Of a DNA stretch of 64,000 bases, positions 22,779-39,922 are shown piece by piece. The notes under the pieces were generated by a model. That model made no database searches, was not told the DNA's origin, and was given only the letters and a program-made list of their open reading frames with translations. Positions within the stretch are counted from its first letter, which is position 1. Every line of letters begins with the position of its first letter. The DNA is from Bacteroidota bacterium (GTDB taxonomy: Bacteria > Bacteroidota > Bacteroidia > Chitinophagales > JADIYW01), in assembly GCA_016705125.1 (NCBI GenBank), contig JADIYW010000028.1:192041-256040 (forward strand). Reading direction: 5' to 3'. The position numbers and the translations under genes were made by a program.

Positions 22779-22804
22779 CAGTCCGCTGACCGCTGACCGC
22801 CGAC
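22779..22804. repeat. CAGTCC/GCTGACCG word array
   Basis: cagtccgctgaccgctgaccgccgac, in the intergenic spacer. Confidence 0.5.
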
Positions 22805-22846
22805 TAACAACCTTGAACCTAAAATTATAAACTAAACTTAGCACCA

Positions 22847-25410: not shown

Positions 25411-25417
25411 TATATTT

Positions 25418-25610
25418 GGCTTTAATGTGCAAAAATATGTAATTAGAGCCAAATATAAAAATAGAACCCCAATTTATTTAAAGAAATAATTAGCCTTAAG
25501 TGCCATAAAAAATACAGTTAAAGCCAAATATAGAATCAAATTATTGATTCTTATAGAAAAATATACTTGGCTCTAAGTGCTATAAAAAATATAATTAGAG
25601 CCAAGTATAA
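25418..25610. repeat. three copies of a ~42-bp degenerate repeat, each carrying an internal inverted repeat
   Basis: Copies at 25418-25458, 25492-25533 and 25569-25610. Copy 3 has ggctctaa-N18-ttagagcc. Spacing is 74 and 77 bp. Confidence 0.55.
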
Positions 25611-25663
25611 TATAAAAAATCCATTAAAAAATGATCTATTTTATAAATTAAAAAATATTTTTT

Positions 25664-25677
25664 ACCAAACGTTTGGT
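25664..25677. promoter_or_regulatory. 14-bp perfect palindrome ACCAAACGTTTGGT, candidate operator
   Basis: Read directly. Lies 48 nt upstream of the MCC-beta ATG and overlaps a TTTG -33-like element. Confidence 0.4.
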
Positions 25678-25703
25678 CAAATAAATATTTAATTGCAAAT
25701 TTG
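25672..25703 (+). promoter_or_regulatory. candidate Bacteroidota-type promoter (TTTG -33, CAAATTTG -7-like, 20-nt spacer)
   Basis: TTTG at 25672-25675 and CAAATTTG at 25696-25703, 22 nt before the ATG at 25725. One mismatch to TAnnTTTG. Confidence 0.35.
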
Positions 25704-25724
25704 TAAAAAGAACTATTTTAGCTT

Positions 25725-27332
25725 ATGTCGATAATTAAATCAAAAATCAATACAAATTCGGCTGCATATAAAGATAATTATGCTAAAATGTTGCTTAAAA
25801 TTGAAGAGCTAAACAAGCATTTAAAGCAATCATTGTTTCAAGGGGAAGAAAAACATTTAGCAAAAGCCAAAGCACAAGGCAAATTTTTGGCTCGAGAACG
25901 CATAGAATTATTATTGGATCAAGATTCTCCATTTCTGGAATTAATGCCATTAGCTGGTTTGGGTGTAAAAGGTGGCTTTGGAACGGGTGGAACAATGGTA
26001 TCGGGTATTGGTTATGTATCTGGAAAAATGTGTTTAATTACAGCAAATGTGGGCACCAATAAAGGTGGGGCAATTGATATTGCAACATTAAAGAAAGCAC
26101 TACGCATAAATGAAATTGGGCAAGAGAATAATTTACCAGCTATCAATTTGGTAGAAAGTGCAGGAGCAAATCTGCCCGACCAGGCACAGGTTTTTAATTT
26201 AGGAGGCAATAATTTTAAAGAAATTACAAGACGTTCGAAAAAAGGAATTCCAACTATTTCCATCGTATTTGGTAACTCCACAGCTGGCGGCGCATATATT
26301 CCTGGCATGAGCGATTATACCATTATGATTAAAAACAAAGCTAAAGTGTTTTTGGCTGGCCCGCCATTAGTAAAAATGGCTACAAATGAGATTGTGGACG
26401 ACGAAACACTAGGTGGTGCTGAAATGCATTCCAAAATATCGGGTGTTTCAGATTATTTGGCTCAAGATGAATTGGATGGAATTAGAATAGCTAGGGAGTT
26501 GATAGCAAATTTGACGAGTCCACAGTCGACAGACCACAGTCAACAGTCGACCATTTACAAAGAACCCAATTATCCAATTGATGAATTACTTGGTATTGTT
26601 TCCGTAGACACAAAAGTGCCTTTTGATTGCAGAGAGGTAATTGCTAGGATTGTAGATGGCTCCGAATTTCATGAATTTAAAAAAGAATATGGAACGACCT
26701 TAATCTGTGGTTATGCCAAAATACACGGTTATCCTATTGCAATCATTAGCAATAATGGTGTTTTATTTAATGACTCATCCAATAAAGGAGCACATTTTAT
26801 TCAGTTGTGCAATATGAACAACACGCCAATTATATTTTTACAAAACATAACTGGTTTTATGGTAGGCAAGGAATATGAACAAAATGGAATGATTAAAGAT
26901 GGTGCAAAAATGATAAATGCCGTTTCTAACTCTGAAGTACCTATGTTTACATTAATGATGGGCGCGAGCTATGGAGCGGGAAATTATGCCATGTGTGGGC
27001 GTGCCTATAATCCAAGGTTTTTGTTTTCTTACCCAAATAGTATGATTGCTGTAATGGGAAGTGAACAGTTGGCTGGTGTAATGCAAATGGTAAGTAGAGA
27101 ATCGGCAATAAAAAGTGGACAAACTTTTGATGAAGCCCAAGCTGCACAAATGAAAGAATTTATGAAAGCCGAAATTGAAAAACAAAGCAACGCATTTTTC
27201 GCCTCTGGACAATTGTGGGACGATGGAATAATTGATCCACGTGATACCAGAAATGTTTTCGGTTTGGTATTGGCGCTGACTTATATGAATGAAGTAAAAG
27301 GAACAAACGCATGGGGCGTGTTTAGAATGTAG
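25725..27332 (+). CDS. methylcrotonyl-CoA carboxylase beta subunit (carboxyltransferase)
   Basis: 535 aa; two crotonase-like carboxyltransferase domains (VESAGANLPDQ, GNSTAGGAYIPGMSDY, GPPLVKMATNE, LGGAEMH, NITGFMVGKEYE). Confidence 0.88.
   Translation: MSIIKSKINTNSAAYKDNYAKMLLKIEELNKHLKQSLFQGEEKHLAKAKAQGKFLARERIELLLDQDSPFLELMPLAGLGVKGGFGTGGTMVSGIGYVSGKMCLITANVGTNKGGAIDIATLKKALRINEIGQENNLPAINLVESAGANLPDQAQVFNLGGNNFKEITRRSKKGIPTISIVFGNSTAGGAYIPGMSDYTIMIKNKAKVFLAGPPLVKMATNEIVDDETLGGAEMHSKISGVSDYLAQDELDGIRIARELIANLTSPQSTDHSQQSTIYKEPNYPIDELLGIVSVDTKVPFDCREVIARIVDGSEFHEFKKEYGTTLICGYAKIHGYPIAIISNNGVLFNDSSNKGAHFIQLCNMNNTPIIFLQNITGFMVGKEYEQNGMIKDGAKMINAVSNSEVPMFTLMMGASYGAGNYAMCGRAYNPRFLFSYPNSMIAVMGSEQLAGVMQMVSRESAIKSGQTFDEAQAAQMKEFMKAEIEKQSNAFFASGQLWDDGIIDPRDTRNVFGLVLALTYMNEVKGTNAWGVFRM
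26520..26552 (+). repeat. GTCGAC-word stretch read in frame (PQSTDHSQQST) in the inter-domain linker
   Basis: ccacagtcgacagaccacagtcaacagtcgacc. Confidence 0.6.
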
Positions 27333-27430
27333 GGGAATTTATGATTTATGATTTGGGATTTATGATTTGGGGATAGGAATGAAGAATTTAAGAATTAGGA
27401 TAAGGAATTTAAGATTTGAAAATTTAAAAA
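27333..27430. repeat. ATTTATG/ATTTGGG/AATTTAAG word array with no cargo ORF
   Basis: Starts right after the MCC-beta stop: gggaatttatgatttatgatttgggatttatgatttgggg...aggaatttaagatttgaaaattt. Confidence 0.6.
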
Positions 27431-27731
27431 AAATGGATTTTTACTTTATAGAATAGAAAATATATTATTTACACAATAATAGGGCTACCCTTTTGCAATT
27501 ATTTTACAAAAAGTTAATTGAATCACTGGCTAATTATCATGTGAAGAAATCACTTGGATTAAATAAATTTAGTCCATACAAGAGGCTTGAATCTATTTAC
27601 TTGGATTGAATTTTATAAATTTTATAAATGAATTTAAAAAAGGAGCAAATAGTTGACCAATATTTAAAGAATTCTAAAAACATAATAAATAATAAACATT
27701 AATTAATTTAAAAAACCTAAATCAAAAATAA

Positions 27732-28211
27732 ATGAATAAATTAACAAAAACGCTAAAACAATTAGATTTTCTTCCAGAAGGAATCAGGATGAAAACCATT
27801 TCCTTTATACTAGGAAATACAGTTAAATATGTGGGAACTTCTGGGGTAGATTTTGAAAAAATAACGCCAAATGAATTGATTGTTTCCTTGCCAAATAAAA
27901 GCAAAGTACGCAATCATATCGGTCAAATACATGCTGCAGCCACTACCCTTTTGGCCGAAACTGCTACAGGAATAATTGTAGGTGTAAATATTCCTGACAA
28001 TAAAATTCCACTAATGAAAACATTGAAAGTGGATTTTATAAGAAGAAGTAAAGGCAAACAAACAGCTGTTTCTACTCTTTCTGAAGAACAAATAAATTTA
28101 ATACAAACAACAGATAAAGGCGAAACACTTGTGCCCGTAAAAGTAACAGATGAAACAGGACAAGAGGTGGTAAAAGCAGAAATGCTATGGGCTTGGATAT
28201 TGAAAAAATAA
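27732..28211 (+). CDS. hotdog-fold protein (DUF4442/PaaI-like thioesterase)
   Basis: 159 aa; NHIGQIHAAATTLLAETATG core typical of hotdog thioesterases. Confidence 0.6.
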   Translation: MNKLTKTLKQLDFLPEGIRMKTISFILGNTVKYVGTSGVDFEKITPNELIVSLPNKSKVRNHIGQIHAAATTLLAETATGIIVGVNIPDNKIPLMKTLKVDFIRRSKGKQTAVSTLSEEQINLIQTTDKGETLVPVKVTDETGQEVVKAEMLWAWILKK

Positions 28212-28244
28212 AAAATTTGAAATTAAAAAACAATTATAAATCAC

Positions 28245-30257
28245 ATGTCTCAAATCTCAAATCCAAAGAAAATAACAAAACTTTTAGTAGCCAATCGGGG
28301 TGAAATAGCCATCCGGATTTTCAAAACTTGTCGCGAAATGGGCATTGCAACCGTTGCTGTTTTCTCTGATGCCGATGAAAATAGTTTATTTGTTAAAATG
28401 GCCGATGAAGCAGTTCGTATTGGTGGTAAGCAACCAAATGAATCGTATTTGGTAATGGATAAAATTATAGATGCAGCGAAACAAACAGGTGCAAATGCCA
28501 TTCATCCAGGTTATGGTTTTTTAAGTGAGAAAGTCGAATTTGCACAACGTGTAATCGATGAAAATATAATTTGGGTAGGTCCACATCCAAAAGCCATTGA
28601 AGTAATGGGATCTAAAATTGGTGCAAAAAAAATAATGCAATCGCATAATGTACCCACCATTCCTGGCTATCAAGGCGACGACCAAAGCGAATCAACCATT
28701 AAATCAAAAGCTATTGAAATTGGATTTCCCGTTTTGCTAAAAGCAAGTGCTGGCGGTGGCGGGAAAGGTATGCGTATCGTTCGGCAGGAAAGTGAATTGG
28801 ATAAAGCCATCAACGAAGCAAAATCCGAAGCTTTAAATGGCTTTGGTGATGATACTTTATTAATAGAAAAATATTTTGACACATCAAGACATGTAGAGTT
28901 TCAAATTTTTGGCGATAAACATGGAAACGCACTTCATTTATTTGAAAGAGAATGTAGCATCCAACGCCGTTATCAAAAAGTAGTAGAAGAAAGTCCTTCG
29001 CCATTTATTACCCAAGAAACACGCCAAAAAATGGGCGATGCTGCAGTTGCTGCGTGTAAAGCAATTGCTTATGATAATGCTGGAACGGTAGAATTTATTG
29101 TGGCACCTGATCAATCTTTTTATTTTTTGGAAGTAAATACTCGTTTGCAAGTAGAGCATCCAATTACTGAAGAAGTAACAGGTTTGGATTTAGTTCGATT
29201 GCAAATAGAAGTTGCCGAAGGTCGCCCAATTCCTTTCAACCAAGAAGCAATTTCGCAATGCGGACATGCAATTGAAGTACGAGTATATGCAGAAGATGCA
29301 GCCAATAATTTTATGCCTGTGAGTGGTAAAATAATAGATTGGATTCCTGCAAAAATTGATGGTTTGCGTTATGATACTGGAATAGAAAGTGGTTCAGAGA
29401 TTTCTACTTTTTACGATCCAATGATTGCAAAAATAATTGCAAAAGGGAAAAACAGACAAGAAGCTATTTCAAAACTTACATTGGCCTTACAAGAATTAGT
29501 TTTAACAGGTTTTACCACAAACAAAAACTTCCTTACTGCAATTTTACAAAATGAAGATTTTCAAAAGGGAGATTTTGATACCCATTTTTTAGATAAAATA
29601 TTCAAATATGAAGGCGAAAAATACAATCAAGAATCTATTGATATTTTAACTTGTGCTTTACAACATTATCGCTTTTTAGAACGGCAGAAAAATCAACCCA
29701 TTTCCAACCTGTCAGGTTGGAGAAATAATTTTTATCAACCACAACAAGAAAAATATAGCTTTGGTGGTTTTGAGTTTTTAGTAGAATATAAAAATGAAAA
29801 TGGTGTTTTGAATATTTCATTTGCGGAAAAAACATTTAAAAGTAAAAATTGTCCACAGACCACTGTCGACTGTCGACCGTTGACCGCTGACATCTTTTAC
29901 GTTTTCGAAATAAACAATATCCGTCGTAAATTTTTCTTCTCACAAAATGGCAATCAATATTTTGTTCATTCACCACAACTTGGGCAAATTGTTTTACTAA
30001 GTATAGATAAATTCCCGAATCCAATAGAAGAAACGGTAAAAGGTGGTTATGCTGCACCGATGCCTGGAGAGGTTACAATTGTTTTGGTAAAAGCTGGTGA
30101 TACGGTGAAAAGTGGTGATGCATTATTAAAAATGATTTCGATGAAAATGGAAAGCACCATTGAAGCACAAGCCGATGGCGAGGTGGAAGAAATTTATGTA
30201 AGCGACAAACAATTTGTAGAAGCAGGAACTTTGTTGTTAAAGATGAAGGAGGAATGA
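28245..30257 (+). CDS. methylcrotonyl-CoA carboxylase alpha subunit (biotin carboxylase + biotinyl domain)
   Basis: 670 aa; KLLVANRGEIAIRI, GGGGKGMR, EVNTRLQVEHP, and C-terminal biotinylation SMKME. Confidence 0.9.
   Translation: MSQISNPKKITKLLVANRGEIAIRIFKTCREMGIATVAVFSDADENSLFVKMADEAVRIGGKQPNESYLVMDKIIDAAKQTGANAIHPGYGFLSEKVEFAQRVIDENIIWVGPHPKAIEVMGSKIGAKKIMQSHNVPTIPGYQGDDQSESTIKSKAIEIGFPVLLKASAGGGGKGMRIVRQESELDKAINEAKSEALNGFGDDTLLIEKYFDTSRHVEFQIFGDKHGNALHLFERECSIQRRYQKVVEESPSPFITQETRQKMGDAAVAACKAIAYDNAGTVEFIVAPDQSFYFLEVNTRLQVEHPITEEVTGLDLVRLQIEVAEGRPIPFNQEAISQCGHAIEVRVYAEDAANNFMPVSGKIIDWIPAKIDGLRYDTGIESGSEISTFYDPMIAKIIAKGKNRQEAISKLTLALQELVLTGFTTNKNFLTAILQNEDFQKGDFDTHFLDKIFKYEGEKYNQESIDILTCALQHYRFLERQKNQPISNLSGWRNNFYQPQQEKYSFGGFEFLVEYKNENGVLNISFAEKTFKSKNCPQTTVDCRPLTADIFYVFEINNIRRKFFFSQNGNQYFVHSPQLGQIVLLSIDKFPNPIEETVKGGYAAPMPGEVTIVLVKAGDTVKSGDALLKMISMKMESTIEAQADGEVEEIYVSDKQFVEAGTLLLKMKEE
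29851..29891 (+). repeat. GTCGAC-word stretch read in frame (PQTTVDCRPLTAD) between the BC and biotinyl domains
   Basis: gtccacagaccactgtcgactgtcgaccgttgaccgctgac. Confidence 0.6.
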
Positions 30258-30306
30258 TTTGAGGATTTGAGGATTTGGAAATTTGAAAATTTGAAAATGA
30301 AATATT

Positions 30307-30831
30307 ATGAAAGAAATTATACCCATACAACAAAAAATATTTGAAATCAGGGGGCAAAAAGTTATGCTTGCCCCGATAGCTATCGGGGTTGATTTGGCTG
30401 TTTTGTATGAAGTTGAGACTAGGGTTTTAAATCAGGCAATTAAAAGGAATATAGAAAGTTTTCCAGATGATTTTATGTTTCAACTTTCTAAATCGGAATG
30501 GCAAAACATGTCATCACAATTTGTGATGACATATCCAATCAAAAGACCAAAATCTGCCATTCCTTATGCATTTACTGAGCATGGCGTAACCATGTTAGCA
30601 AGTGTTTTGAAAAGTCCCAAAGCAAGACAAATGAATATACAAATAGTTAGGGCATTTATTGCACTCAGAAATTGGGCACTTAATTATAAAGAATTAGCAG
30701 ATAAAATTGCGCAATTGGAAAATGACAACGATAAAAAATTTGCAGATATTTATGAGGCTTTAAATTATTTAGTAAGCGAAAAAGAAATAGAAACAAATCA
30801 AAAGGAACGAAATAAAATTGGATTTAAATAA
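30307..30831 (+). CDS. ORF6N (KilA-N-like DNA-binding) domain protein, copy 1
   Basis: IFEIRGQKVML...LAVLYEVETRVLNQAIKRN...FPDDFMFQL, and a coiled C-terminus. Confidence 0.7.
   Translation: MKEIIPIQQKIFEIRGQKVMLAPIAIGVDLAVLYEVETRVLNQAIKRNIESFPDDFMFQLSKSEWQNMSSQFVMTYPIKRPKSAIPYAFTEHGVTMLASVLKSPKARQMNIQIVRAFIALRNWALNYKELADKIAQLENDNDKKFADIYEALNYLVSEKEIETNQKERNKIGFK
30371..30388. repeat. 18-bp perfect GC-rich palindrome CCCCGATAGCTATCGGGG inside ORF6N copy 1
   Basis: Read directly. Encodes the extra residues APIAIGV where the paralogue has DF, inside the conserved VMLD-DLA-LY motif. Confidence 0.7.
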
Positions 30832-30868
30832 AAAATATAAATAATATACAAATCAAAAAGTAATAAAA

Positions 30869-31372
30869 ATGATCGAAACAATTTCCATACAACACAAAAT
30901 ATTTGAAATCAGAGGGCAGAAAGTTATGCTCGATTTTGATTTAGCTCAATTGTATGAAATAGAAACAAAGGTACTTAAGCAAAGTATCAGAAGGAATTTA
31001 AATAGATTCCCTTCTGATTTTATGTTTGAACTTACACCCGATGAATTTACCAGCTTGAGGTCACAAATTGTGACCTCAAGCTGGGGCGGAACAAGATATT
31101 TGCCTTTTGCGTTTACCGAACATGGTGTAACGATGTTAGCAAGTATCCTAAATTCTGACAAAGCAATTAATATAAACATTCAAATAGTTAGGGCATTTAT
31201 TACACTAAGAAATTGGGCACTTAATTATAAAGAATTAGCAGATAAAATTGCGCAATTGGAAAATGACAACGATAAAAAATTTGCAGACATTTATGAAGCA
31301 CTTAATTATTTAGTATCTGAAAAAGAAATGGAAACAAATCAAAAAGAACGTAAAAAAATAGGATTTAAATAA
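30869..31372 (+). CDS. ORF6N (KilA-N-like DNA-binding) domain protein, copy 2
   Basis: IFEIRGQKVMLDFDLAQLYEIETKVLKQSIRRN...FPSDFMFEL. The last 192 nt are nearly identical to copy 1. Confidence 0.75.
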   Translation: MIETISIQHKIFEIRGQKVMLDFDLAQLYEIETKVLKQSIRRNLNRFPSDFMFELTPDEFTSLRSQIVTSSWGGTRYLPFAFTEHGVTMLASILNSDKAININIQIVRAFITLRNWALNYKELADKIAQLENDNDKKFADIYEALNYLVSEKEMETNQKERKKIGFK

Positions 31373-31418
31373 CTCGAATTCCTAAATCATAAATCTAAAA
31401 TCATAAATCATAAATAAT

Positions 31419-32243
31419 ATGCTATACACACAAGAACAAACAGCCAATTTCGCAGAACAAAGTTTTGCTTATTTAATTGTAGAAGAAAAAGAAAATGTAT
31501 TAAGCATTACGCTCAATCGGCCTGATAAACGCAATGCCTTTCACATGCCTTTGGCAAATGAATTAGCGTATGCTTTAGCGTATGCGCATTATAACAATTC
31601 AATTTGGTGCGTAGTTCTCAAAGCAAATGGTCCAACTTTTTGTGCTGGTGCCGATTTAAAAGCATTTGCAGGTGCCGATACTACCGAAAAACCTTCAACC
31701 ATTCCTATGCCGAAAGACATGGTAAAACTCGGCGATGAATTCAATGGTTTACACAAACCTTGCATTGCACAAGTACATGCAGATGTTTACGCGGGTGGCT
31801 TCCTTATGATCGGCGGTGCCACACATGTAGTGGCAGTTGAGTCTGCAAAATTTGGTTTACCTGAAGTAAAACGCGGCATCTTTCCATTCCAAGTAATGGC
31901 AACATTAGAACCATTAATGTCGGCAAGGCAATTACTAGATTTATGTTTGAGGGCCAAAACATTAACCGCTCAAGAAGCAAAAGAAGTTGGATTAGTATCA
32001 GTTGTAGTACATCCTGACAGGTTGGAAGAAACGGTTCAAAATTTAGTTTCTGATATAAAAGAACAATCGCCAACTGCCATACGTTTGGGCCTAAAAGCAT
32101 TTCAAGAAATGAAAACAAAAAATGCCGACGACAAACACAAATACTTACATGCTATGTTGATGCAATGTTTACAGAGTAAAGATGCGGCAGAAGGTTTATT
32201 AGCATTCAAAGAAAAACGAAAAGCAAACTGGACAGGCAATTAA
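31419..32243 (+). CDS. enoyl-CoA hydratase family (methylglutaconyl-CoA hydratase-like)
   Basis: 274 aa; crotonase motifs NRPDKRNAF, FCAGADLK, GLPEVKRGIFP. Confidence 0.8.
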   Translation: MLYTQEQTANFAEQSFAYLIVEEKENVLSITLNRPDKRNAFHMPLANELAYALAYAHYNNSIWCVVLKANGPTFCAGADLKAFAGADTTEKPSTIPMPKDMVKLGDEFNGLHKPCIAQVHADVYAGGFLMIGGATHVVAVESAKFGLPEVKRGIFPFQVMATLEPLMSARQLLDLCLRAKTLTAQEAKEVGLVSVVVHPDRLEETVQNLVSDIKEQSPTAIRLGLKAFQEMKTKNADDKHKYLHAMLMQCLQSKDAAEGLLAFKEKRKANWTGN

Positions 32244-32248
32244 AAACT

Positions 32249-32329
32249 AACCGCAAAGGTCTCAAAGATATTACGCAAAGTTCTCTAAGAAAAACTATTC
32301 AATTCAAAAATTGCGCTCTTTGAAGTGTT
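32249..32329. repeat. cargo-less pair of inverted CGCAAAG-type word arrays
   Basis: Left: aaccgcaaaggtctcaaagatattacgcaaagttctctaag (32249-32289). Right: ttgcgctctttgaagtgtt (32311-32329). The left end matches 17/19 with the left flank of the GxxExxY-2 cassette. Confidence 0.45.
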
Positions 32330-32346
32330 AAAAAATAAAAAAGAAT

Positions 32347-33741
32347 ATGAGCAAAACAATAAGAATAGCAGGAGCACAAGGATTTTATGGTGATTCACCT
32401 TTGGGTGCAATGCAAATTGCCATGCAAGGCGCAGCCGATTATTTGATGCACGATGCATTAGCAGAACTAACTTTATCTATCTTACAAAAAGATAAGATAA
32501 AAGACCCAACGATGGGTTATGCCCGAGATATTGAGGTACATGCACGCACTTTATACCCAATGGCATTTGCAAAAGGCATTAAAATTGTAACCAATAGTGG
32601 CGGATTAAACCCTGAAAGTGCCGCCGAAAAGGTAAAAGCCATTTTAGAAAAACAGGGCATTAAAGGCGTCAAAATAGCAACCATTACTGGTGATGATGTG
32701 CTGGCACGTTTACCAGAATTTAAAGAAAATAATATAGAGTTAAATAACTTAGATGACAACTCCTCTTATTACGATTCCAAGTTTCCACCTACTCATGCCA
32801 ATGTATATATAGGTGCACAAAAAGTAAAAGAAGCATTGGACAATGGTGCCAATTTAATTTTAGCTGGTAGAGTTGCAGATCCTTGTTTGGCTTTGGGTAT
32901 TATGGCACACGAATACAATTGGAAAATAGACGATGCAACTTCACAGGAAGATTGGGACAGAATGGCATTTGCAATTACAATTGGTCATATTTTGGAATGT
33001 GGCGGACAAGCAAGTGGTGGCAATGCCTACTCCGAATGGCCTATGAATTATAGTGTGTCAGATTTGGGTTATCCCATTGCTCATGTGAATGAAGACTGCA
33101 CAGCCATTTTAACAAAAGCAGACAATACCGGAGGTAAAGTATCGAGAAATACAATTAGGGAGCAGCTGGTTTATGAAATTCACGATCCTACAAATTATAT
33201 AACGCCCGATGTAGTTGTTGACTTATCTAATATCATTTTGAAAGATGAGTCAGAAAATAGAGTATCCATTTCAGGTATAAAAGGCAAACCAAGACCAGAA
33301 AAATTAAAATTGTGTATCGGACAACATGAAGGATTTGTAACAGAGCAATTTTTCTTCTTCTCCTACCCTTTTGCTTATGATAAATTACAAATGTTCATAA
33401 AAGCCACCAAAGAAACATGGGCAAAATTACCCGTTCAAATTCTCGAATCTCGATTCAACATAATAGGAGTTAATGGTTTACATGAAGATGCGGTAGAAAT
33501 ACCAGATGTTGCAGAATTAAATCAGAGAAGTGAACTAGGATTACGAATTGCTATCAAACATAAAGACGACAGAACAGGAAAAACAGCCATTGCTGGTATT
33601 GTTTGTTTGGGTTTAAATGGCCCTCCAGGTGTAATTTCAGTGCCAGGTTGGGGAAATATGAATAGGGCAATGTTGAGTTTGTTTCCTTGTTTGATACCAA
33701 GAGAATTGATTGAACCTGAATTAAAATATATTGAAGTATAA
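32347..33741 (+). CDS. AtuA-like acyclic terpene utilisation protein (DUF1446), N-terminal body
   Basis: 464 aa; IRIAGAQGFYGDSP...DYLMHDALAELTL N-terminus typical of DUF1446. Confidence 0.7.
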   Translation: MSKTIRIAGAQGFYGDSPLGAMQIAMQGAADYLMHDALAELTLSILQKDKIKDPTMGYARDIEVHARTLYPMAFAKGIKIVTNSGGLNPESAAEKVKAILEKQGIKGVKIATITGDDVLARLPEFKENNIELNNLDDNSSYYDSKFPPTHANVYIGAQKVKEALDNGANLILAGRVADPCLALGIMAHEYNWKIDDATSQEDWDRMAFAITIGHILECGGQASGGNAYSEWPMNYSVSDLGYPIAHVNEDCTAILTKADNTGGKVSRNTIREQLVYEIHDPTNYITPDVVVDLSNIILKDESENRVSISGIKGKPRPEKLKLCIGQHEGFVTEQFFFFSYPFAYDKLQMFIKATKETWAKLPVQILESRFNIIGVNGLHEDAVEIPDVAELNQRSELGLRIAIKHKDDRTGKTAIAGIVCLGLNGPPGVISVPGWGNMNRAMLSLFPCLIPRELIEPELKYIEV

Positions 33742-33744
33742 ATT

Positions 33745-34184
33745 GTCCATAGTCGACGGTCGACAGTCGACCGTGGACTGTTAAACTAAATAATTATGGC
33801 ATTTAAATTTGAGGAATTAAGAATTTGGCAAAAAAGTGTTCAACTTACTACCATTATAGATGAAGTTGCTGACGGATTTCCCAAAAAAGAAATTTATAGC
33901 TTATCAAACCAAATTCGAAGAGCTGCTGATTCTGTATCGTTAAATATTGCAGAAGGTTCAACTGGTCAAACAAATCCTGAATTTAGAAGATTTTTTGGGT
34001 ATGGCTTTAAGATCTGGCATTGAAGTAATCGGTTGTATTTATTTAGCCAAAGAAAGAAAAATAATTAAAGAAGAAGATTTCAAAAGGGTATATGAAGGAT
34101 ATGAAGCATTAATTGTTTCAATTCAATCCCTTAGAAAAACATTATAAACTTTTCGCGGTGGACTGTAGACCGTGGACTGTGGAC
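33745..34184 (+). mobile_element. 440-bp cassette: four-helix-bundle gene bracketed by 29-bp imperfect terminal inverted repeats of GTCGAC words
   Basis: 33745-33773 gtccatagtcgacggtcgacagtcgaccg matches the reverse complement of 34156-34184 (gtccacagtccacggtctacagtccaccg) at 25/29 positions. Confidence 0.55.
33796..34147 (+). pseudogene. four-helix-bundle protein (23S rRNA intervening-sequence protein family), frameshifted
   Basis: FEELRIWQKS...LSNQIRRAADSVSLNIAEG...EFRRF, then LGMALRSGIEV...L in the +1 frame. The break is at T6, 33991-33996. Confidence 0.7.
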
Positions 34185-34200
34185 TTTAAAAAAAAACAAT

Positions 34201-34674
34201 ATGGAAAAAAAAATAGAATTTATGTTACGAGCCATTGAGCTATCAAAAAATGGGCTTGAAAGCGGAAAAGGTGGACCTTTCGGATGTGTAATTGTAAAAG
34301 ATGGAAAAATAATTGGTGAAGGCAACAATCAGGTTACATCCACCAATGATCCCACTGCTCATGCCGAAATGGTTGCAATAAGAAATGCATGCAAAAACAT
34401 AAACAGCTTTCAACTCGAAGGCTGCGAAGTATACACTTCATGCGAACCATGTCCTATGTGTTTAGGAGCTATTTATTGGGCACGTCCCGATAAAATTTAT
34501 TTTGCAAATAATCGATCAGATGCTGCTGAAATAGGCTTCGACGATGCTTTTATTTATGATGAAATAGAAGAAAAAATAGAAAATAGGCAGATACAAATGG
34601 AGCCTTTGGGTAGAATGGAGGCTTTGGAAATTTTTAAACAATGGAAATTAAAAACAGATAAAATTGAATACTAA
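34201..34674 (+). CDS. CDA-fold nucleoside/guanine deaminase
   Basis: GGPFGCVIVKDGKIIGEGNNQVTSTNDPTAHAEMVAIR and PCPMCLGA zinc motifs. Resembles B. subtilis GuaD. Confidence 0.75.
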   Translation: MEKKIEFMLRAIELSKNGLESGKGGPFGCVIVKDGKIIGEGNNQVTSTNDPTAHAEMVAIRNACKNINSFQLEGCEVYTSCEPCPMCLGAIYWARPDKIYFANNRSDAAEIGFDDAFIYDEIEEKIENRQIQMEPLGRMEALEIFKQWKLKTDKIEY

Positions 34675-34685
34675 AATTTAAAATT

Positions 34686-35003
34686 ATGGCAATGATAAAA
34701 TTAATAGATATTGCATCGGCTCGAAGTGGCGATAAAAACAATGTGTGCAATATTGGTGTAATGGCGAAATCCGTAAATGATTATGACACTTTAAAAAAGT
34801 ACCTAACCCCTGAACTTGTAAAAGCACATTTCAAGGGATTGATAAAAGGCAAAGTGGAACGCTTTGAATGGGATAGTTTAGAATCTCTAAATTTTGTATG
34901 CCATGAAGCCTTAGATGGTGGTGCATCTCGAAGTATGCGTATGGATAGTTTGGGTAAAAATTTTAGCTCCCATTTATTGAGACTTGAGATAGAAATAAAT
35001 TAA
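34686..35003 (+). CDS. small protein resembling the C-terminal domain of full-length AtuA
   Basis: 105 aa; IASARSGDKNNVCNIGVMAK resembles the RSGDKG..N.GV motif I recall from AtuA C-termini. Confidence 0.45.
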   Translation: MAMIKLIDIASARSGDKNNVCNIGVMAKSVNDYDTLKKYLTPELVKAHFKGLIKGKVERFEWDSLESLNFVCHEALDGGASRSMRMDSLGKNFSSHLLRLEIEIN

Positions 35004-35537
35004 CCGCAAAGTAAACAAAGTTTTTTCGCAAAGTTCAAAAAGAAAAATGAAAGAAAATGAGTTATCACATATTGTAATTGGATTAGCAATTGATATACAT
35101 AGTTCACTTGGTCCTGGATTATTAGAAAGTGCATATCAAGAATGTTTATTTTACAAATTAAATAAAGAAGGATTCAAAGTTGAAAAAGAAAAAACAATGC
35201 CATTAATTTTTGAGGGCTTAAAATTAGATTGTGGTTATAGAATAGATTTATTAGTTGAAAATAAATTAGTAATCGAAATAAAAAGTGTAACGGAATTAAA
35301 TGATGTTCATTTAGCACAAACCCTTACATACTTAAAATTAGGAGATTATAAACTTGGATTATTAATAAACTTTAATGTAACTCTTTTAAAATTTGGAATA
35401 AAAAGAGTAGTAAATGGATTATAAACTTTTAAATTCTTACTTTAAAAACTTGAAAGACTTATATATTATTTAAAAAACTAATTACATATAAAAACCTTTG
35501 CAAACTTTGCTTAAAAACTTTAAATTCTTTGCGGTAA
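35001..35537 (+). mobile_element. cassette: GxxExxY gene bracketed by ~42-bp imperfect inverted CGCAAAG-word arms
   Basis: Left arm 35001-35042 and the reverse complement of right arm 35495-35537 match at 32/42 positions ungapped. The left arm begins with the host stop codon (aatTAAccgcaaag). Confidence 0.45.
35047..35424 (+). CDS. GxxExxY protein (PD-(D/E)xK nuclease-fold mini-protein), copy 1
   Basis: 125 aa; GPGLLESAYQECL (GxxExxY) and YRIDLLVENKLVIEIKS (D..ExK). Confidence 0.8.
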   Translation: MKENELSHIVIGLAIDIHSSLGPGLLESAYQECLFYKLNKEGFKVEKEKTMPLIFEGLKLDCGYRIDLLVENKLVIEIKSVTELNDVHLAQTLTYLKLGDYKLGLLINFNVTLLKFGIKRVVNGL

Positions 35538-35551
35538 AAAAAAATTAAAAA

Positions 35552-37057
35552 ATGACAAACTTAGAACAATATTACTTAACAGAAGAGCACCATTTATTTC
35601 GTAATTCATTGCGTGATTTTTTGGATAAAGAAGTGGTGCCGTTTGTAGATCAATGGGAAATTGACCATCAGGTGCCAAAAGAAATTTTTAGAAAATTTGG
35701 CGAAATGGGTTATTTTGGATTAACTCAAGAAGAGAAATATGGCGGCTCTAATTTAGATTTTTGGTACGACGTAATCTTTATCGAAGAAGTTTCAAAATCC
35801 AATTCCGGTGGTTTTGGCGCTAGTATTTCGGCTCATCCTTATTTGTCTATGTCACACTTGAAACATGAAGGAAGTGATTTTTTGAAAGATAAATATTTGC
35901 CAAAAGCCATTTCTGGAGATTGGCATGGCGCACTAGCAATCACCGAGCCTCACGCTGGATCAGATGTTGCGAACATAAAAACAACAGCAAAAAAAGACGG
36001 CGACTTTTATATAATAAATGGATCAAAATGTTTTATTACCAATGGTGTATCCGCCGATTATATAATTGTAGCTTGCAAAACTGCTAACGGAATTTCCATG
36101 ATTTTAGTGGAAGGAAATGCTATAGGTTTATCAAAAAACAATTTGAATAAATTAGGATGGAAAGCAAGTGATACAGCTGAGTTAGCATTTGATAATGTCA
36201 AAGTACCAATTACCAATTTATTGGGCGAAGAAGGTAAAGGATTTTACTATATCATGCAACGATTTGAATTAGAAAGACTTACACTAGCACTTGGGGCATT
36301 GGCTTCTTCAGAATGGGCATTGCAATATGCATTACAATACATGAACGAACGAAAGGCTTTTGGAAAAACAATAAATAAATTCCAAGTTTTAAGACATAGA
36401 ATAGCACAAATGGCTGCTGAAATAGAAAATGTAAAAACATTTACTTACCACGTTTGCAAAATGTATAATGACAAAAATTATTGTGTAAAAGAAGCATCAA
36501 TGTCAAAATTATTGGCCACCGAATTGTCAGATAAAGTGGCCTACCAATGCTTGCAAATGTTTGGTGGATACGGCTACATGGAAGAATACAAGATTGCACG
36601 CTTTTTCAGAGATTCGCGATTAGGAACTATTGGTGGTGGCAGTTCTGAAATTATGTGTGAGATTATTGCAAAGATGGTTATTGATGATGTGAGTTATGGT
36701 CGACAGACGACGGTCGACAGTCCAAAGCAAAAGGAATTAAACATTGAAGACATAATTAGTAGCTTACCAAATCGATTTAAAAAAGAAAAAGCAAATGGTA
36801 TTGAAATGACCATTCTATTTGAGTTTGAAAATGATTTATACTATCAAATCGAAATAAAAAACCAAAATATTGTTTTGTCCACGGTCGACAGTCGACAGTC
36901 GACAGTGGACTTAACCATTACAACCACAACCGAAACATACATCGCAGTAGAAACGGGCAAACTAAATCCCCAAGAAGCATTTATGAGTGGGAAAATAAAA
37001 GTAAGCGATTTGGGTAAAATGATGCAGTTTGGTTCTCTTTTTAAAAAATATAATTAA
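35552..37057 (+). CDS. acyl-CoA dehydrogenase fused to a C-terminal SCP2 domain (candidate isovaleryl-CoA dehydrogenase of the cluster)
   Basis: 501 aa; ACAD motifs (ALAITEPHAGSD, FGGYGYMEEY, GTIGGGSSEI). The C-terminal ~110 aa resembles the stand-alone SCP2 ORF at 19543-19878. Confidence 0.85.
   Translation: MTNLEQYYLTEEHHLFRNSLRDFLDKEVVPFVDQWEIDHQVPKEIFRKFGEMGYFGLTQEEKYGGSNLDFWYDVIFIEEVSKSNSGGFGASISAHPYLSMSHLKHEGSDFLKDKYLPKAISGDWHGALAITEPHAGSDVANIKTTAKKDGDFYIINGSKCFITNGVSADYIIVACKTANGISMILVEGNAIGLSKNNLNKLGWKASDTAELAFDNVKVPITNLLGEEGKGFYYIMQRFELERLTLALGALASSEWALQYALQYMNERKAFGKTINKFQVLRHRIAQMAAEIENVKTFTYHVCKMYNDKNYCVKEASMSKLLATELSDKVAYQCLQMFGGYGYMEEYKIARFFRDSRLGTIGGGSSEIMCEIIAKMVIDDVSYGRQTTVDSPKQKELNIEDIISSLPNRFKKEKANGIEMTILFEFENDLYYQIEIKNQNIVLSTVDSRQSTVDLTITTTTETYIAVETGKLNPQEAFMSGKIKVSDLGKMMQFGSLFKKYN
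36698..36723 (+). repeat. GTCGAC-word stretch read in frame (GRQTTVDSP) at the ACAD/SCP2 junction
   Basis: ggtcgacagacgacggtcgacagtcc. Confidence 0.6.
36877..36910 (+). repeat. GTCGAC-word stretch read in frame (STVDSRQSTVD) inside the SCP2 domain
   Basis: gtccacggtcgacagtcgacagtcgacagtggac; its ends are self-complementary (gtccac/gtggac). Confidence 0.6.
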
Positions 37058-37074
37058 CCACAAAGTTCTCAAAG

Positions 37075-37523
37075 TTCCGAAACTTCGGAATTACACAAAG
37101 CACACAAAGATGAAAGAAAATGATTTAGCATATAAAGTAATAGGTTTAGCAATTGAAGTACACAATGTATTAGGACCTGGATTATTAGAAAGTGCATATC
37201 AGGAATGCTTATTTTATAAAATAGAAAAAGAAGGATTACAAGTAGTAAAAGAAAAAGCAATGCCATTGATTTATGAAGAAGTAAAATTGGATTGTGGTTA
37301 TAGAATAGATTTATTAGTAGAAAATAAATTAGTTATAGAAATAAAAAGTGTAGATGCTTTAAATGAAATACATCTTGCACAAACTTTAACTTATCTTAAA
37401 TTAGGAAAATATAAACTTGGATTATTAATAAATTTCAACACCATACTTTTAAAAAGTGGCATAAAACGAATTATAAACGGAAATCCCACTTAGTGAACTT
37501 TGTGTAATTCCGAAGTTTCGGAA
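37075..37523 (+). mobile_element. 449-bp cassette: GxxExxY gene bracketed by perfect 26-bp terminal inverted repeats
   Basis: 37075-37100 ttccgaaacttcggaattacacaaag is the exact reverse complement of 37498-37523 ctttgtgtaattccgaagtttcggaa. Each repeat also contains a ttccgaa/ttcggaa hairpin. Confidence 0.6.
37110..37493 (+). CDS. GxxExxY protein (PD-(D/E)xK nuclease-fold mini-protein), copy 2
   Basis: MKENDLAYKVIGLAIEVHNVLGPGLLESAYQECL...YRIDLLVENKLVIEIKS. I prefer the ATG at 37110 over the track start at 37029, which runs through the upstream gene end and the inverted repeat. Confidence 0.8.
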   Translation: MKENDLAYKVIGLAIEVHNVLGPGLLESAYQECLFYKIEKEGLQVVKEKAMPLIYEEVKLDCGYRIDLLVENKLVIEIKSVDALNEIHLAQTLTYLKLGKYKLGLLINFNTILLKSGIKRIINGNPT

Positions 37524-38673
37524 TTACCCAGTTTGTGTTAAAAAAACAAACAAAATAAATTTAATTTTTTAAAAAAATACACCCCCAAAATGAGTGCAAC
37601 ACAATCTTATCTTAGAAAAGAACACGAATCTTTCAGACAAACGATTCGACAATTTTTAGAAAAAGAAGCCATTCCAAATATTGACCAATGGGAATTGGAT
37701 GGCAAAATACCACGTGTGAAGAAATATCAAAAGTTTTCTCTGGTGGATTTACCATTACTGCCGCCGTGCAAGCATTTATGAGCACTCCATACATTATGAA
37801 ACACGGTAGTGAATATTTGAAAGAAAACTATCTAAAGCCTGCCATAACAGGAGAAAAAATTGGCTGTATCGGAATTACCGAACCAGGTGCTGGCAGTGAT
37901 GCAGCAAATATTCAAACTCGTGCTATTAAAGAAGGCGATTATTATATCGTAAATGGCTCAAAAACATTTATTACAAATGGTATTTATGGACAATTTGTAA
38001 TATTGGTTTGTAAAACAAACCCCGAAGCCGGCGCTGCAGGTGTAAGCCTATTGGTATTGGATTTGGATGCAGAAGGGGTGTCAAAAAACAAACTTAAAAA
38101 ATTAGGATGGCACGCATCCGACACAGCGGAATTGCATTTTGACAATGTTAAAGTACCCGTCAAAAATTTATTGGGTGAAGAAGGAAAAGGATTTTATTAC
38201 CTCATGGGAGGCCTACAATTAGAACGTTTATCTGCTGGAATAATGGGCTATGCATCCTGTGAGGCCATGTTGGAATACTCCTTAAAATACATGAATGAGC
38301 GAAGTGCTTTTGGAAGAACAATCAATAAATTTCAAGTATTGCGACACAGAGTAGCACAATTAGCAGCAGAAATAGAAAGCATTAAAATATTTACACTACA
38401 AACTTGCAAAATGCATGAAGAGGGTAAATATGTTGTAAAAGAATGCTCGATGGTGAAATTATTAGCCACCGAATTAGCAGACAAATGTATGTATCAATGT
38501 CTACAGTTTTTTGGAGGTTATGGCTATATGGAAGAATACAAAGTGGCACGTGCTTTCAGGGATTCTCGAATAGGAACAATTGGAGGTGGTTCGTCAGAAA
38601 TTATGCGCGAAATAATCGCTAAAATGGTCATAGATGATATTGGTTATGAAAGAGCCGAATCTAATGTAGATGG

Positions 38674-38713
38674 CCAACCGTCGACGGTCGACAGTCAACC
38701 GTTGACTGTGGAC
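38674..38713 (+). repeat. GTCGAC-word stretch read in frame (QPSTVDSQPLTVD) at the ACAD/SCP2 junction of copy 2
   Basis: ccaaccgtcgacggtcgacagtcaaccgttgactgtggac. Confidence 0.6.
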
Positions 38714-38839
38714 AAAATATTTGCCACTTTACCCGCACGTTTTAAAACCGAAAAAGCAGTTGGAAAGAACTTAAATTTAGAATTCAGGTTTGACTCCTCT
38801 ACTTATTATGTACTTATAAAAGATGGGAATTTAGAAATT

Positions 38840-38875
38840 CAGTCGACCGACGACCGTCGACCGTCGACCGTGGAT
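38840..38875 (+). repeat. GTCGAC-word stretch read in frame (QSTDDRRPSTVD) inside the SCP2 domain of copy 2
   Basis: cagtcgaccgacgaccgtcgaccgtcgaccgtggat. Confidence 0.6.
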
Positions 38876-39028
38876 TGTTTAGTAGAAACAGATGATGCGA
38901 CTTATATCGCTGTTGAAACTGGGAAATTAAACCCTCAAGAAGCCTTTATGACAGGAAAAATAAAGGTATCCGATTTGATGCAAATGATGGCTTTTGGAGC
39001 ACTTTTCAAAAAACTATAGGTAAATAAA

Positions 39029-39069
39029 CTTAAAACAATCCTTGATTATATTTCAAGGATTGTTTTAAG
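39029..39069. terminator. bidirectional rho-independent terminator between convergent genes
   Basis: Perfect 17-bp stem cttaaaacaatccttga / tcaaggattgttttaag with a 7-nt loop. Confidence 0.7.
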
Positions 39070-39104
39070 TTATATACTTTTTAAAAATCGATTTATATAT
39101 AGAA

Positions 39105-39803
39105 TTATAATAATCCTAAGGCCAATTCTACCATTTGAGAAAATGAATTTTGACGTTCTTCTGAGGTAGTAGAATCACCCGTAATCAAACTGTCGCTTAT
39201 CGTAAAAACACCCAAAGCATCTACTTTATATTTATGAGCCAAAGTAAATAAAATGGAAGATTCCATTTCAACAGCCAAAACGCCATGTTCGGCCCACACT
39301 TTAAACCAATTTGGGTCGCTATTATAAAATTCATCAGCGCTTAATACATTTCCAGCTTTTACATTTATTCCTTTTGTTTTAGCAATATCCATTGCTTTTA
39401 AAAACAAAGGTATGCTTGCCGTTGCAGCATAATCGGCACCATTAAAATATTTCGTATTTATATATGAGGTAGTACTTGCTGAAACTGCTACAACAATATC
39501 ACGTAAATTAATAAATGGTTGCATTGAACCTGCCGTACCCACTCTAATTAATTGTTTACAACCATATTCACGTATCAATTCATTGACATAAATAGAAATT
39601 GAGGGAATACCCATTCCGGTACCTTGTACCGAAACCCTTTTACCTCTATAAAATCCAGTAAATCCAAGCATATTTCTTACGTCATTGTAACAAAAGACAT
39701 CATCCAAAAAAGTATCTGCAATATACTTAGCCCTTAGCGGGTCACCTGGCAATAGGATTGTTTCAGCAATTTCACCCTTTTTTGCATTTATATGGATACT
39801 CAT
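39105..39803 (-). CDS. deoD: purine nucleoside phosphorylase, DeoD type
   Basis: [33 protein letters not shown]... is collinear with E. coli DeoD. I prefer the start at MSIHI over the track start at 39821. Confidence 0.88.
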
Positions 39804-39922
39804 ATTATTTTTTAATCCCAAAAATAAGAAATGTATTTTAAAGCAGATGAGTTAATTTTAAAAACCTTGTATGGGCTTTTATAAATTCAAAAAAAAACAT
39901 ACTTTTAGAAAAAAAATACAAA

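Follow-up and report, generated by a model that had tools for sequence, protein, structure and literature searches.

Small genes between the cistrons of a Bacteroidota liu/atu-type operon as likely cargo of foldback cassettes resembling 23S rRNA intervening sequences

The 23S rRNA genes of some bacteria (Leptospira, Coxiella, Brucella and Xanthomonas type) contain intervening sequences (IVSs) that carry a small open reading frame (ORF). The IVS of Coxiella burnetii is 428 nt long and holds an S23p ORF, which encodes a four-helix-bundle (4HB) protein, in the loop of a stem of 28-bp terminal inverted repeats. RNase III cuts this stem, and the ORF, which is decaying, is preceded by two or three tandem GACAGAT heptamers, their number depending on the strain (PMC4990558). 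The same paper records older, unresolved proposals that IVSs are relics of transposition or mobile elements. The 4HB family (PF05635) is functionally uncharacterised and Avd-like (PMC11270868, PMC10053308). Here we describe this anatomy, long known in rRNA genes, between protein-coding genes of a 64,000-nt stretch of a Bacteroidota genome (GCA_016705125.1, contig JADIYW010000028.1; hereafter, the window). A single co-directional gene string of liu/atu type, about 13 kb long (25725-39019), lies on the + strand, as do all its features given below. An original prediction, made from the letters alone, had placed five small co-oriented genes in the spacers of this operon, and family searches confirmed them: two ORF6N genes, one 4HB gene and two GxxExxY nuclease genes. 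The prediction knew of no formal description of such a system. Our literature search likewise found no account of 4HB or GxxExxY genes as hairpin-wrapped intercistronic cassettes, but the ORF-containing 23S rRNA IVS, the closest relative, had been overlooked.

The cassettes share one plan. Inverted arrays of 7-8-nt words make up the two arms of a long, imperfect hairpin, whose loop contains one small ORF or a tandem pair. On the left, the arm begins at the stop codon of the upstream host gene or within it; on the right, it ends in an A-rich leader before the next ATG. Tandem Repeats Finder (TRF) located period-7/8 arrays exactly at the flanks of the small genes. When the left arm of each cassette was joined to its right arm and the fold compared with 200 dinucleotide shuffles, the arms of the 4HB and GxxExxY genes paired far better than the shuffled sequences (z = -7.8 to -11). 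The claim of inverted arrays at each cargo thus stands for these genes but not for the ORF6N pair, which is taken up below.

The 4HB cassette (33747-34196) has the anatomy of an rRNA IVS. Its left arm (33747-33781) consists of the heptamers AGTCGAC GGTCGAC AGTCGAC CGTGGAC, and its right arm (34154-34196) of four GTGGACT-type heptamers and an A-run that ends before the ATG of a deaminase gene; both were found by TRF and folding. Joined, the arms fold with -56.6 kcal/mol (z = -10.7). The gene between them (33796-34147), a member of the "23S rRNA IVS protein" or Avd-like family, matches TIGR02436/PF05635 on both halves. Its family and position were predicted correctly, but the gene is frameshifted in the window by an extra T in a T-run at 33991. 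An intact 116-aa protein is encoded in most conspecific contigs (L097 among them), where it scores 6.8e-28, and in locus L018. Its relatives in the PDB are the uncharacterised pentameric proteins 2GSC and 2RLD.

As in the rRNA IVS, the ORF occupies the loop of a long terminal-inverted-repeat stem, and tandem heptamers of variable number stand right before it (two to three GACAGAT in Coxiella, four of AGTCGAC type in the window). Frequent decay of the ORF and a sporadic distribution are also common to both. In contrast, the rRNA IVS sits in helix 25/45 of 23S rRNA, whereas the cassettes described here sit between an mRNA stop codon and the next start. Excision by RNase III has been demonstrated for the rRNA IVS and would apply here by analogy. 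The S23p/PF05635 cargo is shared by the 4HB cassette only, and the architecture in this operon also carries a GxxExxY nuclease or occurs without cargo.

The words of 4HB arms vary by subfamily and locus (GTTCAC, GTCGAC, GTCCGC, GACCAC, GATTTGG, AATGAAAT and ATGTG). In Cytophagales, 4HB relatives are found between aguB and aguA (N-carbamoylputrescine amidase and agmatine deiminase; CN_hydrolase and PAD_porph), flanked by inverted octamer arrays in which up to ten GGAAGTCN words face eight NGACTTCC words. Three of these genomes (among loci L107-L116) have a 4HB gene at the same aguB/aguA junction with arrays of different length. In L107 the database start of PAD_porph was called within the right-arm array; therefore, such arrays distort the annotation of gene starts. 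An extreme expansion of one arm was seen in locus L008 (5437-5673, in the spacer between the MCC-beta and MCC-alpha genes), where about 18 tandem heptamers, AGTCAAG/AATCAGG, are followed by a 4HB-type right arm.

Two cassettes carry genes of the GxxExxY family. In the first, the left arm (35000-35042) consists of TTAA-CCGCAAAG and three CAAAG words with a spacing of 9/13/9, and the stop codon TAA of the AtuA-C gene falls within its opening TTAA. The gene (35047-35424; TIGR04256/PF13366, 3.7e-42) is separated by an AT-rich spacer of about 70 nt from the right arm (35495-35544), which has four CTTTG words ending in CTTTGCGG-TAAAAAAAAA. The arms form inverted repeat I2 (43 nt, 77% complementary), and their joined fold has -36.4 kcal/mol (z = -7.8). 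In the second cassette, the left arm (37054-37109) consists of TTAA-CCACAAAG with a nested small palindrome, TTCCGAAACTTCGGAA, which is mirrored in the right arm (37495-37546); the gene lies between them (37110-37493; TIGR04256, 1.6e-42). Here the inverted repeat, I3, is 35 nt long and 91% complementary, and the joined arms fold with -47.8 kcal/mol (z = -11.0). The outer words of this right arm have degenerated in the window, whereas conspecifics keep them intact (CTTTGTGGTTAAAA). The nested palindrome of 16-19 nt, partly deleted in one strain, is mirror-symmetric in both arms, and therefore the arms appear to be homogenised against each other at the DNA level. The two window genes, referred to as Gxx1 and Gxx2, are 78% identical in amino acids and 81.6% in nucleotides, the latter value hinting at a local origin of the copies.

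The two window proteins score 143-145 bits against TIGR04256, for which the curated cut-off is 35. D67, E77 and K79 are intact in Gxx1, invariant in near relatives and conserved to at least 90% in a diverse alignment (A4). G24, E27 and Y30 are also invariant in near relatives; in A4, Y30 is invariant and G24 and E27 are conserved to at least 90%. The AlphaFold (AF2) model built from the diverse alignment (pLDDT 96.3) adopts a minimal PD-(D/E)xK fold. Foldseek searches with this model retrieved generic PD-(D/E)xK nucleases only, at a TM-score of about 0.5 (Cas4 SSO0001, the lambda-exonuclease family, Bax1, tRNA-splicing endonuclease, the R2 endonuclease domain and, weakly, I-Bth0305I), which leaves the protein without assignment to a specific class of enzyme, and no solved GxxExxY relative was found by a sequence search of the PDB. 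As modelled, the GxxExxY protein is a minimal nuclease core. PF13366 is listed as "function unknown" in a survey of PD-(D/E)xK proteins (PMC3424549). The family comprises at least 8000 clusters at 90% identity and 18,989 representatives at 50% identity (E <= 1e-3). Many relatives have 270-295 residues and two tandem GxxExxY domains; therefore, fused dimers of the nuclease exist.

The arms are a property of the GxxExxY family and not of this operon alone. We examined 80 further metagenomic loci with 63-90% amino acid identity and a GC content of 27-56%. Forward [AC]NCNRAG words occur 2.2 times per 90 nt upstream of the gene, and reverse words 2.9 times per 150 nt downstream, which correspond to approximately 12-fold and 10-fold enrichment over a background of 0.20 per 100 nt. 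The elements are bounded by TTAACCRCAAAG...CTTTGYGGTTAA, after which comes an A-run, with conserved termini in 32-33 of the 80 loci (consensus TTAACCRC...GYGGTTAA, with CAAAG/CTTTG arms). TTAA is the commonest flanking 4-mer on both sides (14 and 15 of 30). The arm design is fixed at four words spaced by about 9, 11-13 and 9 nt. In a set of 20 elements, which were hand-picked and carry that selection bias, 94.4% of the cells are paired and 33 cells show double changes compared with 11.4 +/- 3.1 after shuffling; none of 500 shuffles reached 33. Column 4/97 has 14 AU and 6 GC pairs with no breaks, and covarying word pairs include CACAAAG/CTTTGTG, CGCAAAG/CTTTGCG, CACGGAG/CTCCGTG and CACAGAG/CTCTGTG.

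The predicted tie between the small-gene families and inverted flanking arrays thus holds for GxxExxY and 4HB but not for ORF6N, and the predicted rule of one word family per cargo type holds for GxxExxY only: the 4HB genes use many, and the GATTTGR words that flank the ORF6N genes in the window flank 4HB genes in L011-L014. In a separate count, which relied on crude ORF-based neighbour calls, 30 of 55 GxxExxY genes had the orientation of both their neighbours. We judged this to be near ordinary co-orientation, with no background rate computed, and rejected read-through in operons as a rule of the family.

Occupancy of the junctions was compared among genomes and within the species. A genome scan with AtuA gave 16 syntenic loci (L001-L016; AtuA 86-96% identical) in metagenome-assembled genomes of Chitinophagales, Saprospirales and Sphingobacteriales, and 14 conspecific contigs carrying an identical Gxx1 protein formed the within-species set. 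The order of the seven core genes (MCC-beta type, MCCb; MCC-alpha type, MCCa; enoyl-CoA hydratase, ECH; AtuA; AtuA-C; and two ACAD-SCP2 fusions, ACAD1 and ACAD2) is constant throughout, whereas the fillings of the junctions vary: empty, hairpin only, 4HB of three subfamilies, GxxExxY, PIN and antitoxin pairs, HNH/Mrr_N, DUF2971 and others. Every insert in the syntenic loci is co-oriented with the host genes. All 4HB and GxxExxY cassettes in the window and in L001-L016 have an upstream array beginning at the host stop and a reverse-complement array ending before the next ATG. Right arms are at times tandemly duplicated (L003, L008). The variable occupancy that had been predicted is borne out: empty or differently filled sites occur at every junction in relatives, even within one population.

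L010 and L016 are nearly cargo-free, and L001 has only Gxx1 in common with the window. L003 holds a hotdog-fold gene, a truncated ORF6N gene, a 4HB gene at the ECH/AtuA junction and Gxx2. L007 and L008 also have 4HB at ECH/AtuA, and L008 carries in addition a second 4HB gene after AtuA, two antitoxin and PIN pairs and an HNH/Mrr_N gene. A different 4HB subfamily occupies MCCb/MCCa in L011-L014, and another occupies ACAD1/ACAD2 in L011-L013. Elsewhere in the syntenic loci there are larger unknown ORFs, a GMC oxidoreductase and an alpha/beta hydrolase. Thus, 4HB is found at ECH/AtuA (L003, L005, L007-L009), between AtuA and the next gene (the window and L008) or at AtuA/AtuA-C (L006). GxxExxY cargo is found at three junctions, and Gxx2 is missing at ACAD1/ACAD2 in L001, L016 and the conspecific L100.

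Within the species, the ECH/AtuA junction holds either a cargo-less hairpin or, in L100, L102-L104 and L127, a 4HB element in its place. L127 and L128, which come from one population, are 98.6% identical over 3.8 kb upstream and 99.8% identical over AtuA, but are unrelated from about 30 nt inside the 3' end of the hydratase gene to codon 2 of AtuA; one has the 4HB element and the other the cargo-less hairpin. The difference is an allelic replacement, brought about by homologous recombination in the conserved host genes on either side. Disruption of the cargo by stops or frameshifts is common (L005, L006, L007, L049, L052, L067, L072 and the window 4HB gene). The dN/dS ratios of the cargo (0.07-0.22, against 0.03-0.09 for the host genes) indicate that it is under purifying selection; that of Gxx1 is 0.14 compared with L001. 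When horizontal transfer of the cassettes was sought in the synonymous divergence, the dS of Gxx1 was 0.58 compared with 0.9-2.1 for its neighbours, but paralogues within one genome give similar dS.

Hairpins of the same type also occur without cargo, as had been predicted for two spacers. One of these, at 32248-32335, is a cargo-less GxxExxY-type foldback element with a left arm of four CAAAG words (32248-32289) and a degenerate right arm (32311-32335). The window copy, whose right arm has decayed, folds with -11.5 kcal/mol (z = -1.0), and the conspecific copy in L097/L105 is intact (-29.9 kcal/mol, z = -6.2). The arms of the cargo-less elements match those of Gxx1. Further ORF-less elements of this type occur at ACAD1/ACAD2 in L009, at MCCb/MCCa in L010, at AtuA/AtuA-C in L001, L010, L012 and L015 and at ECH/AtuA in L097 as in the window. 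The second spacer, in contrast, holds no inverted pair. It is a one-sided tandem array of GATTTATG / GAATTTAAG words (27332-27433; TRF period 7/14/28) that abuts the MCC-beta stop codon and forms no hairpin (-9.9 kcal/mol, z = -0.9). Its homologues are the left arms of the 4HB cassettes that occupy this junction in L011-L014, and no decayed cargo was found in the 300 nt that follow it. A different palindrome, CGTCATTGCGAACGAAGTGAAGCA...TGCTTCGCACCTCACAATGACG, which we take to be a repeat type often translated as spurious peptides in Bacteroidota and cyanobacteria, was seen at ACAD1/ACAD2 in L010 (13381-13480).

The ORF6N pair has the same layout. Its left arm (30256-30303; TRF period 8, 5.2 copies) consists of about five GGATTTGA-type words starting from the host stop codon. 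Its right arm (31379-31415; TRF period 7, 5.3 copies) consists of about five TAAATCA words (the left-arm words in reverse complement) and ends 3 nt before the hydratase ATG. The two KilA-N-like DNA-binding genes between the arms (30307-30831, PF10543, 1.6e-28; 30869-31372, PF10543, 8.9e-36) are 72% identical with near-identical C-termini, and the dN/dS between them is 0.30.

Based on these observations, the small genes are probably the cargo of IVS-like "foldback" cassettes, selfish or accessory units that overlie a conserved operon and turn over slowly. The cassettes are probably the intercistronic counterpart of the ORF-containing 23S rRNA IVSs. New junctions would be colonised rarely, by insertion at TTAA/TA beside stop codons, as suggested by the ends TTAA-CCRCAAAG...CTTTGYGG-TTAA. 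In one comparison between species, L001/L016 read AATTAAAA where the window reads AATTAA[element]TTAAAA, which is consistent with a TTAA duplication. The GxxExxY nuclease may recognise its own conserved CAAAG/CTTTG arrays, with the cargo-less hairpins as targets or relics; the relation between gene and arms would then be homing-like or RAYT/REP-like. Conservation of the words and termini of GxxExxY elements across very different genomes, unlike the free choice of words in 4HB arms, argues for sequence-specific recognition, and the most economical candidate for the recogniser is the cis-linked nuclease. In the polycistronic RNA, the arms would pair and loop the cassette out. RNase III might cut the arm stem, as in rRNA IVSs, and insertion would then be nearly harmless. 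The operon appears to tolerate the cassettes because they are co-oriented, have no terminators, provide an A-rich leader in the right arm and form a hairpin that apposes the host stop and start.

Several results weigh against the foldback-cassette reading. No recent transposition was detected: among 84 GxxExxY elements, sampled as one locus per genome, all pairs with at least 85% nucleotide identity share their flanks. TTAA is palindromic and may belong to the inverted repeat and not to a target duplication, and the only comparison of a filled with an empty site is the one between species. Homologous allelic replacement is the sole exchange that could be reconstructed, and it is not insertion. 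The predicted insertion at gene boundaries is borne out as to the variable junctions but not as to movement. Gxx1 is orthologous and vertically inherited in the window, L001, L005, L006 and L017. The cassettes have no linked transposase or recombinase. A scan of the IMG/VR viral contigs revealed no relatives of GxxExxY, and thus a phage vector is not supported. The strong conservation of the cargo proteins fits a function useful to the host as well. A conserved terminal sequence was sought in the 4HB arms of the operon loci and Cytophagales, and none was found. The inverted arrays of the ORF6N pair are visible but pair weakly (-15.8 kcal/mol, z = -1.3), no better than chance, and flanking arms are absent from ORF6N relatives in all four other contexts examined.

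The strand preference of the arms also bears on the reading. A wobble test (G.U versus A.C; sense arms versus their reverse complements) showed no G.U excess on the sense strand, and the antisense strand of the GxxExxY arms folds better by 2.8 kcal/mol (p = 0.007). Selection purely on an mRNA stem is therefore not supported. The pairing fits a strand-symmetric role at the DNA level (protein sites, a cruciform or a single-stranded DNA hairpin) at least as well as it fits an RNase III stem.

A broader form of the foldback-cassette reading is that one widespread, undescribed class of cassettes unites the rRNA IVSs with thousands of intergenic 4HB and GxxExxY genes. The encoded nuclease, or a pentameric 4HB/Avd-like protein, would recognise the arm words, and this recognition would drive copying into cargo-less hairpins or maintain the cassette. 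The hairpin would silence the insertion in RNA through RNase III excision or stop-start apposition, and the same word arrays would colonise coding loops in frame. We regard this generalisation as tentative and lean against it.

Alternatively, the hairpins might serve the host as intercistronic elements of mRNA processing or stability (cf. REP/BIME and RNase III sites), in whose loops small accessory or addiction genes gather by recombination without any mobile element. Nearly all spacers of the operon, in every genome, contain an inverted word-array hairpin with or without cargo, and the words at the same junction differ even between the closest genomes; structure kept without sequence conservation is typical of functional RNA. 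The purifying selection on the cargo, the lack of recent transposition and homologous recombination as the only exchange mechanism seen would also agree with such hairpins. However, some junctions are hairpin-free (24-25 nt at ACAD1/ACAD2 in L001/L016, 1 nt at MCCa/ECH in L011, and an overlap in L009), and in other operons of the window the genes overlap and arrays and hairpins are absent. The same arrays also occur within coding loops and between divergent or convergent genes, and the sense-strand wobble signature is missing. The GxxExxY words and TTAACC termini are kept over 27-56% GC, a conservation that a structural role alone does not need. A purely host-serving origin is therefore unlikely in our view.

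Still less probable is that the elements are non-autonomous transposons with terminal inverted repeats, that is, miniature inverted-repeat transposable elements (MITEs) with an ORF, moved in trans by an unlinked transposase (TTAA-specific IS1380/piggyBac-like or IS5/IS630-like) with no part played by the cargo. Such elements would account for the conserved inverted termini of the GxxExxY elements with TTAA on both sides, for the cargo-less copies and for the heterogeneous cargo (PIN, HNH, 4HB and ORF6N). The picture of a MITE with cargo, put forward in the original prediction, is apt in so far as cargo-less arm pairs exist. However, the linkage of GxxExxY genes with CAAAG arms persists across a very large family (approximately 19,000 representatives at 50% identity), which argues that gene and arms belong together. 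Moreover, near-identical dispersed copies are lacking, the 4HB arms have no conserved terminal motif, and no gene emerged as a candidate transposase. The one transposase-like gene recognised in the window, a RAYT gene (9293-9949), looks unrelated, and its GTAG-type REPs are unrelated to the cassette words.

Capture of promoterless ORFs by a site-specific recombinase at folded palindromic sites, as in integrons, is highly improbable, and the integron likeness that had been proposed fails. The co-oriented ORFs without obvious promoters and the palindromes conserved in structure but variable in sequence recall integron cassettes. In L127 and L009, a 4HB ORF follows a complete hairpin and has a right arm on either side, the two in direct orientation (L-loop-R-ORF-R), as expected from a circle integrating at an arm. 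In contrast to the single 3' attC site of integron cassettes, however, an arm normally lies on each side of the ORF, and consistent RYYYAAC/GTTRRRY core sites are lacking. What would be the cassette array is a conserved metabolic operon with an unvarying order of core genes. Inspection of the ORFs beside it, only some of which were run against family libraries, revealed no integrase, attI or Pc; no search dedicated to integrases was made. Ordinary vertically inherited operon membership with fortuitous flanking repeats, to which the orthology of Gxx1 in several related genomes and its purifying selection might point, is hardly tenable, being refuted in the synteny comparison by presence, absence and replacement at every junction and opposed by the fold statistics of the arms, the family-wide association of GxxExxY with arms and the frequent pseudogenes.

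Other known systems resemble the foldback cassettes in part. Like REP/REPIN and RAYT systems, they consist of a single small gene flanked by inverted hairpin repeats that are its putative substrate, are accompanied by many cargo-less hairpins in intergenic and intercistronic spacers, and persist for long with mostly vertical inheritance and slow turnover. Whereas RAYT is an HUH/Y1 enzyme, however, the cargo here belongs to PF13366, PF05635 or PF10543. The arms are built of 7-8-nt word arrays without the GTAG/CGTC tetranucleotide of REPs, and GxxExxY genes, unlike RAYT, are multi-copy per genome. The RAYT gene of the window is full-length and lies within a type I restriction-modification operon, in the same orientation and immediately upstream of a 1070-aa hsdR-like ORF. 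Its frame crosses three GTAG-type REP-like palindromes (9441-9477, ~9617-9645 and 9696-9732), which are translated as RRGNPSWLPF, VGATLVVAPV and GQPQGIAPT.

Free-standing homing endonucleases (T4 seg/mob; the PD-(D/E)xK enzymes I-Ssp6803I and I-Bth0305I) are likewise small nuclease genes between conserved genes with presence/absence polymorphism, and the pseudogenes suggest a similar cycle of invasion, decay and loss. They have no counterpart to the inverted word arrays, however; no recent spread was found here, and 4HB and ORF6N proteins are not nucleases. The hairpins of Neisseria Correia elements are RNase III substrates. MITEs of this kind (Correia, ERIC/IRU) share with the cassettes the terminal inverted repeats, a possible TA/TTAA duplication and a location in co-transcribed spacers. 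They are non-coding and present in near-identical copies, in contrast to the old, diverged elements described here (median pairwise nucleotide identity of the 84 GxxExxY elements, 70.6%), most of which have a conserved ORF, and the conserved terminal sequence that marks them is found in GxxExxY but not in 4HB elements. Drosophila foldback (FB) transposons have long inverted arms of short tandem subrepeats, sometimes with a coding middle, but are eukaryotic and much larger.

The core genes that the cassettes separate were identified by family searches. The carboxyltransferase of MCC-beta type (25725-27332; NCBIfam) is kept in all syntenic loci and is followed by the biotin carboxylase and BCCP gene of MCC-alpha type (28245-30257; NCBIfam and synteny), enoyl-CoA hydratase (31419-32243; NCBIfam), AtuA (32347-33741; PF07287, 2.8e-115), the AtuA ferredoxin-like C-terminal protein AtuA-C (34686-35003; PF23544), an ACAD-SCP2 fusion (35552-37057; NCBIfam ACAD, Pfam ACAD and SCP2) and a second ACAD-SCP2 (37590/37688-39019; family searches). 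Two genes that the prediction had counted among the host cluster, the hotdog-fold (DUF4442) gene (27732-28211; PF14539) and the cytidine/deoxycytidylate-type deaminase gene (34201-34674; PF00383), turned out to be variable and accessory. Among the loci compared, the hotdog gene is confined to the window lineage and L003. The deaminase gene lacks arms of its own and was observed in the window species alone, being absent from L001-L016 and present in conspecific contigs. The prediction saw no obvious promoter-sized gap, but one of 399 nt precedes the hotdog gene. A scan for sigma-70 promoters gave matches at chance level, and the sigma-70 consensus is not applicable to Bacteroidota. The sole strong terminator-like site in 25400-39200 is a hairpin at the end of the transcription unit (39027-39071), with a 19-pair stem and a T-rich tail. 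A search of 25000-40000 against Rfam gave two chance microRNA matches only and no rRNA match.

The window differs from the conspecific contigs by about 3%, chiefly at third codon positions. In addition, its second ACAD-SCP2 gene is broken, with 100 nt missing at ~37713, and its right arms at 32297-32326 and 37524-37539 are unusually degenerate. These changes, together with the extra T at 33991, may be real mutations or assembly errors.

Word arrays were also observed within genes and at other sites of the window. In-frame (GTCGACN)n heptamer arrays occur in the first ACAD-SCP2 gene (36699-36722 and 36884-36910), and the second contains an in-frame inverted pair (38675-38718 and 38837-38879; 43 nt, 72% complementary). 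In the proteins, these arrays give (S/P)TVD repeats, located in the linker between ACAD and SCP2 and in a loop of SCP2; the closest orthologues, L001 and L016, lack them. Their presence in both genes indicates that word arrays colonise coding loops too, which is reminiscent of the Rickettsia palindromic elements. Tandem arrays without cargo occupy other intergenic regions of the window (19879-20236, 41247-41415, 52151-52266 and 53494-54016; one-sided at 22764-22846) as mosaics of GTTATTG, ATTCAACATTAACC, GTCCACG, AATGAAAT and CCGCTGA words; the divergent region 53494-54016 (523 nt) is built almost wholly of them. A palindrome, ACCAAACGTTTGGT / CCAAACGTTTGTTTGG, lies in AT-rich sequence upstream of the operon (25664-25677) and upstream of a divergent pair of an SCP2 and a 508-aa gene (19942-19957), and the same motif also precedes ACAD1 and ACAD2 in L007. 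It is probably the operator of a shared regulator.

GxxExxY and 4HB are two large families without known function; the 4HB or "23S IVS protein" family, homologous to Avd, the accessory protein of diversity-generating retroelements, has been unexplained since about 1990. If genes and arrays form one functional unit, the families acquire testable substrates, namely CAAAG/CTTTG words with TTAACC ends for GxxExxY and heptamer arrays for 4HB. If the foldback-cassette reading is correct, the origin and mobility of rRNA IVSs could be addressed in a much larger sample outside rRNA genes, and many spurious "hypothetical proteins" and N-terminal extensions called through arrays would be explained. It would also add a bacterial analogue of foldback elements and show how compact Bacteroidota operons tolerate foreign genes at the boundaries between stop and start codons.

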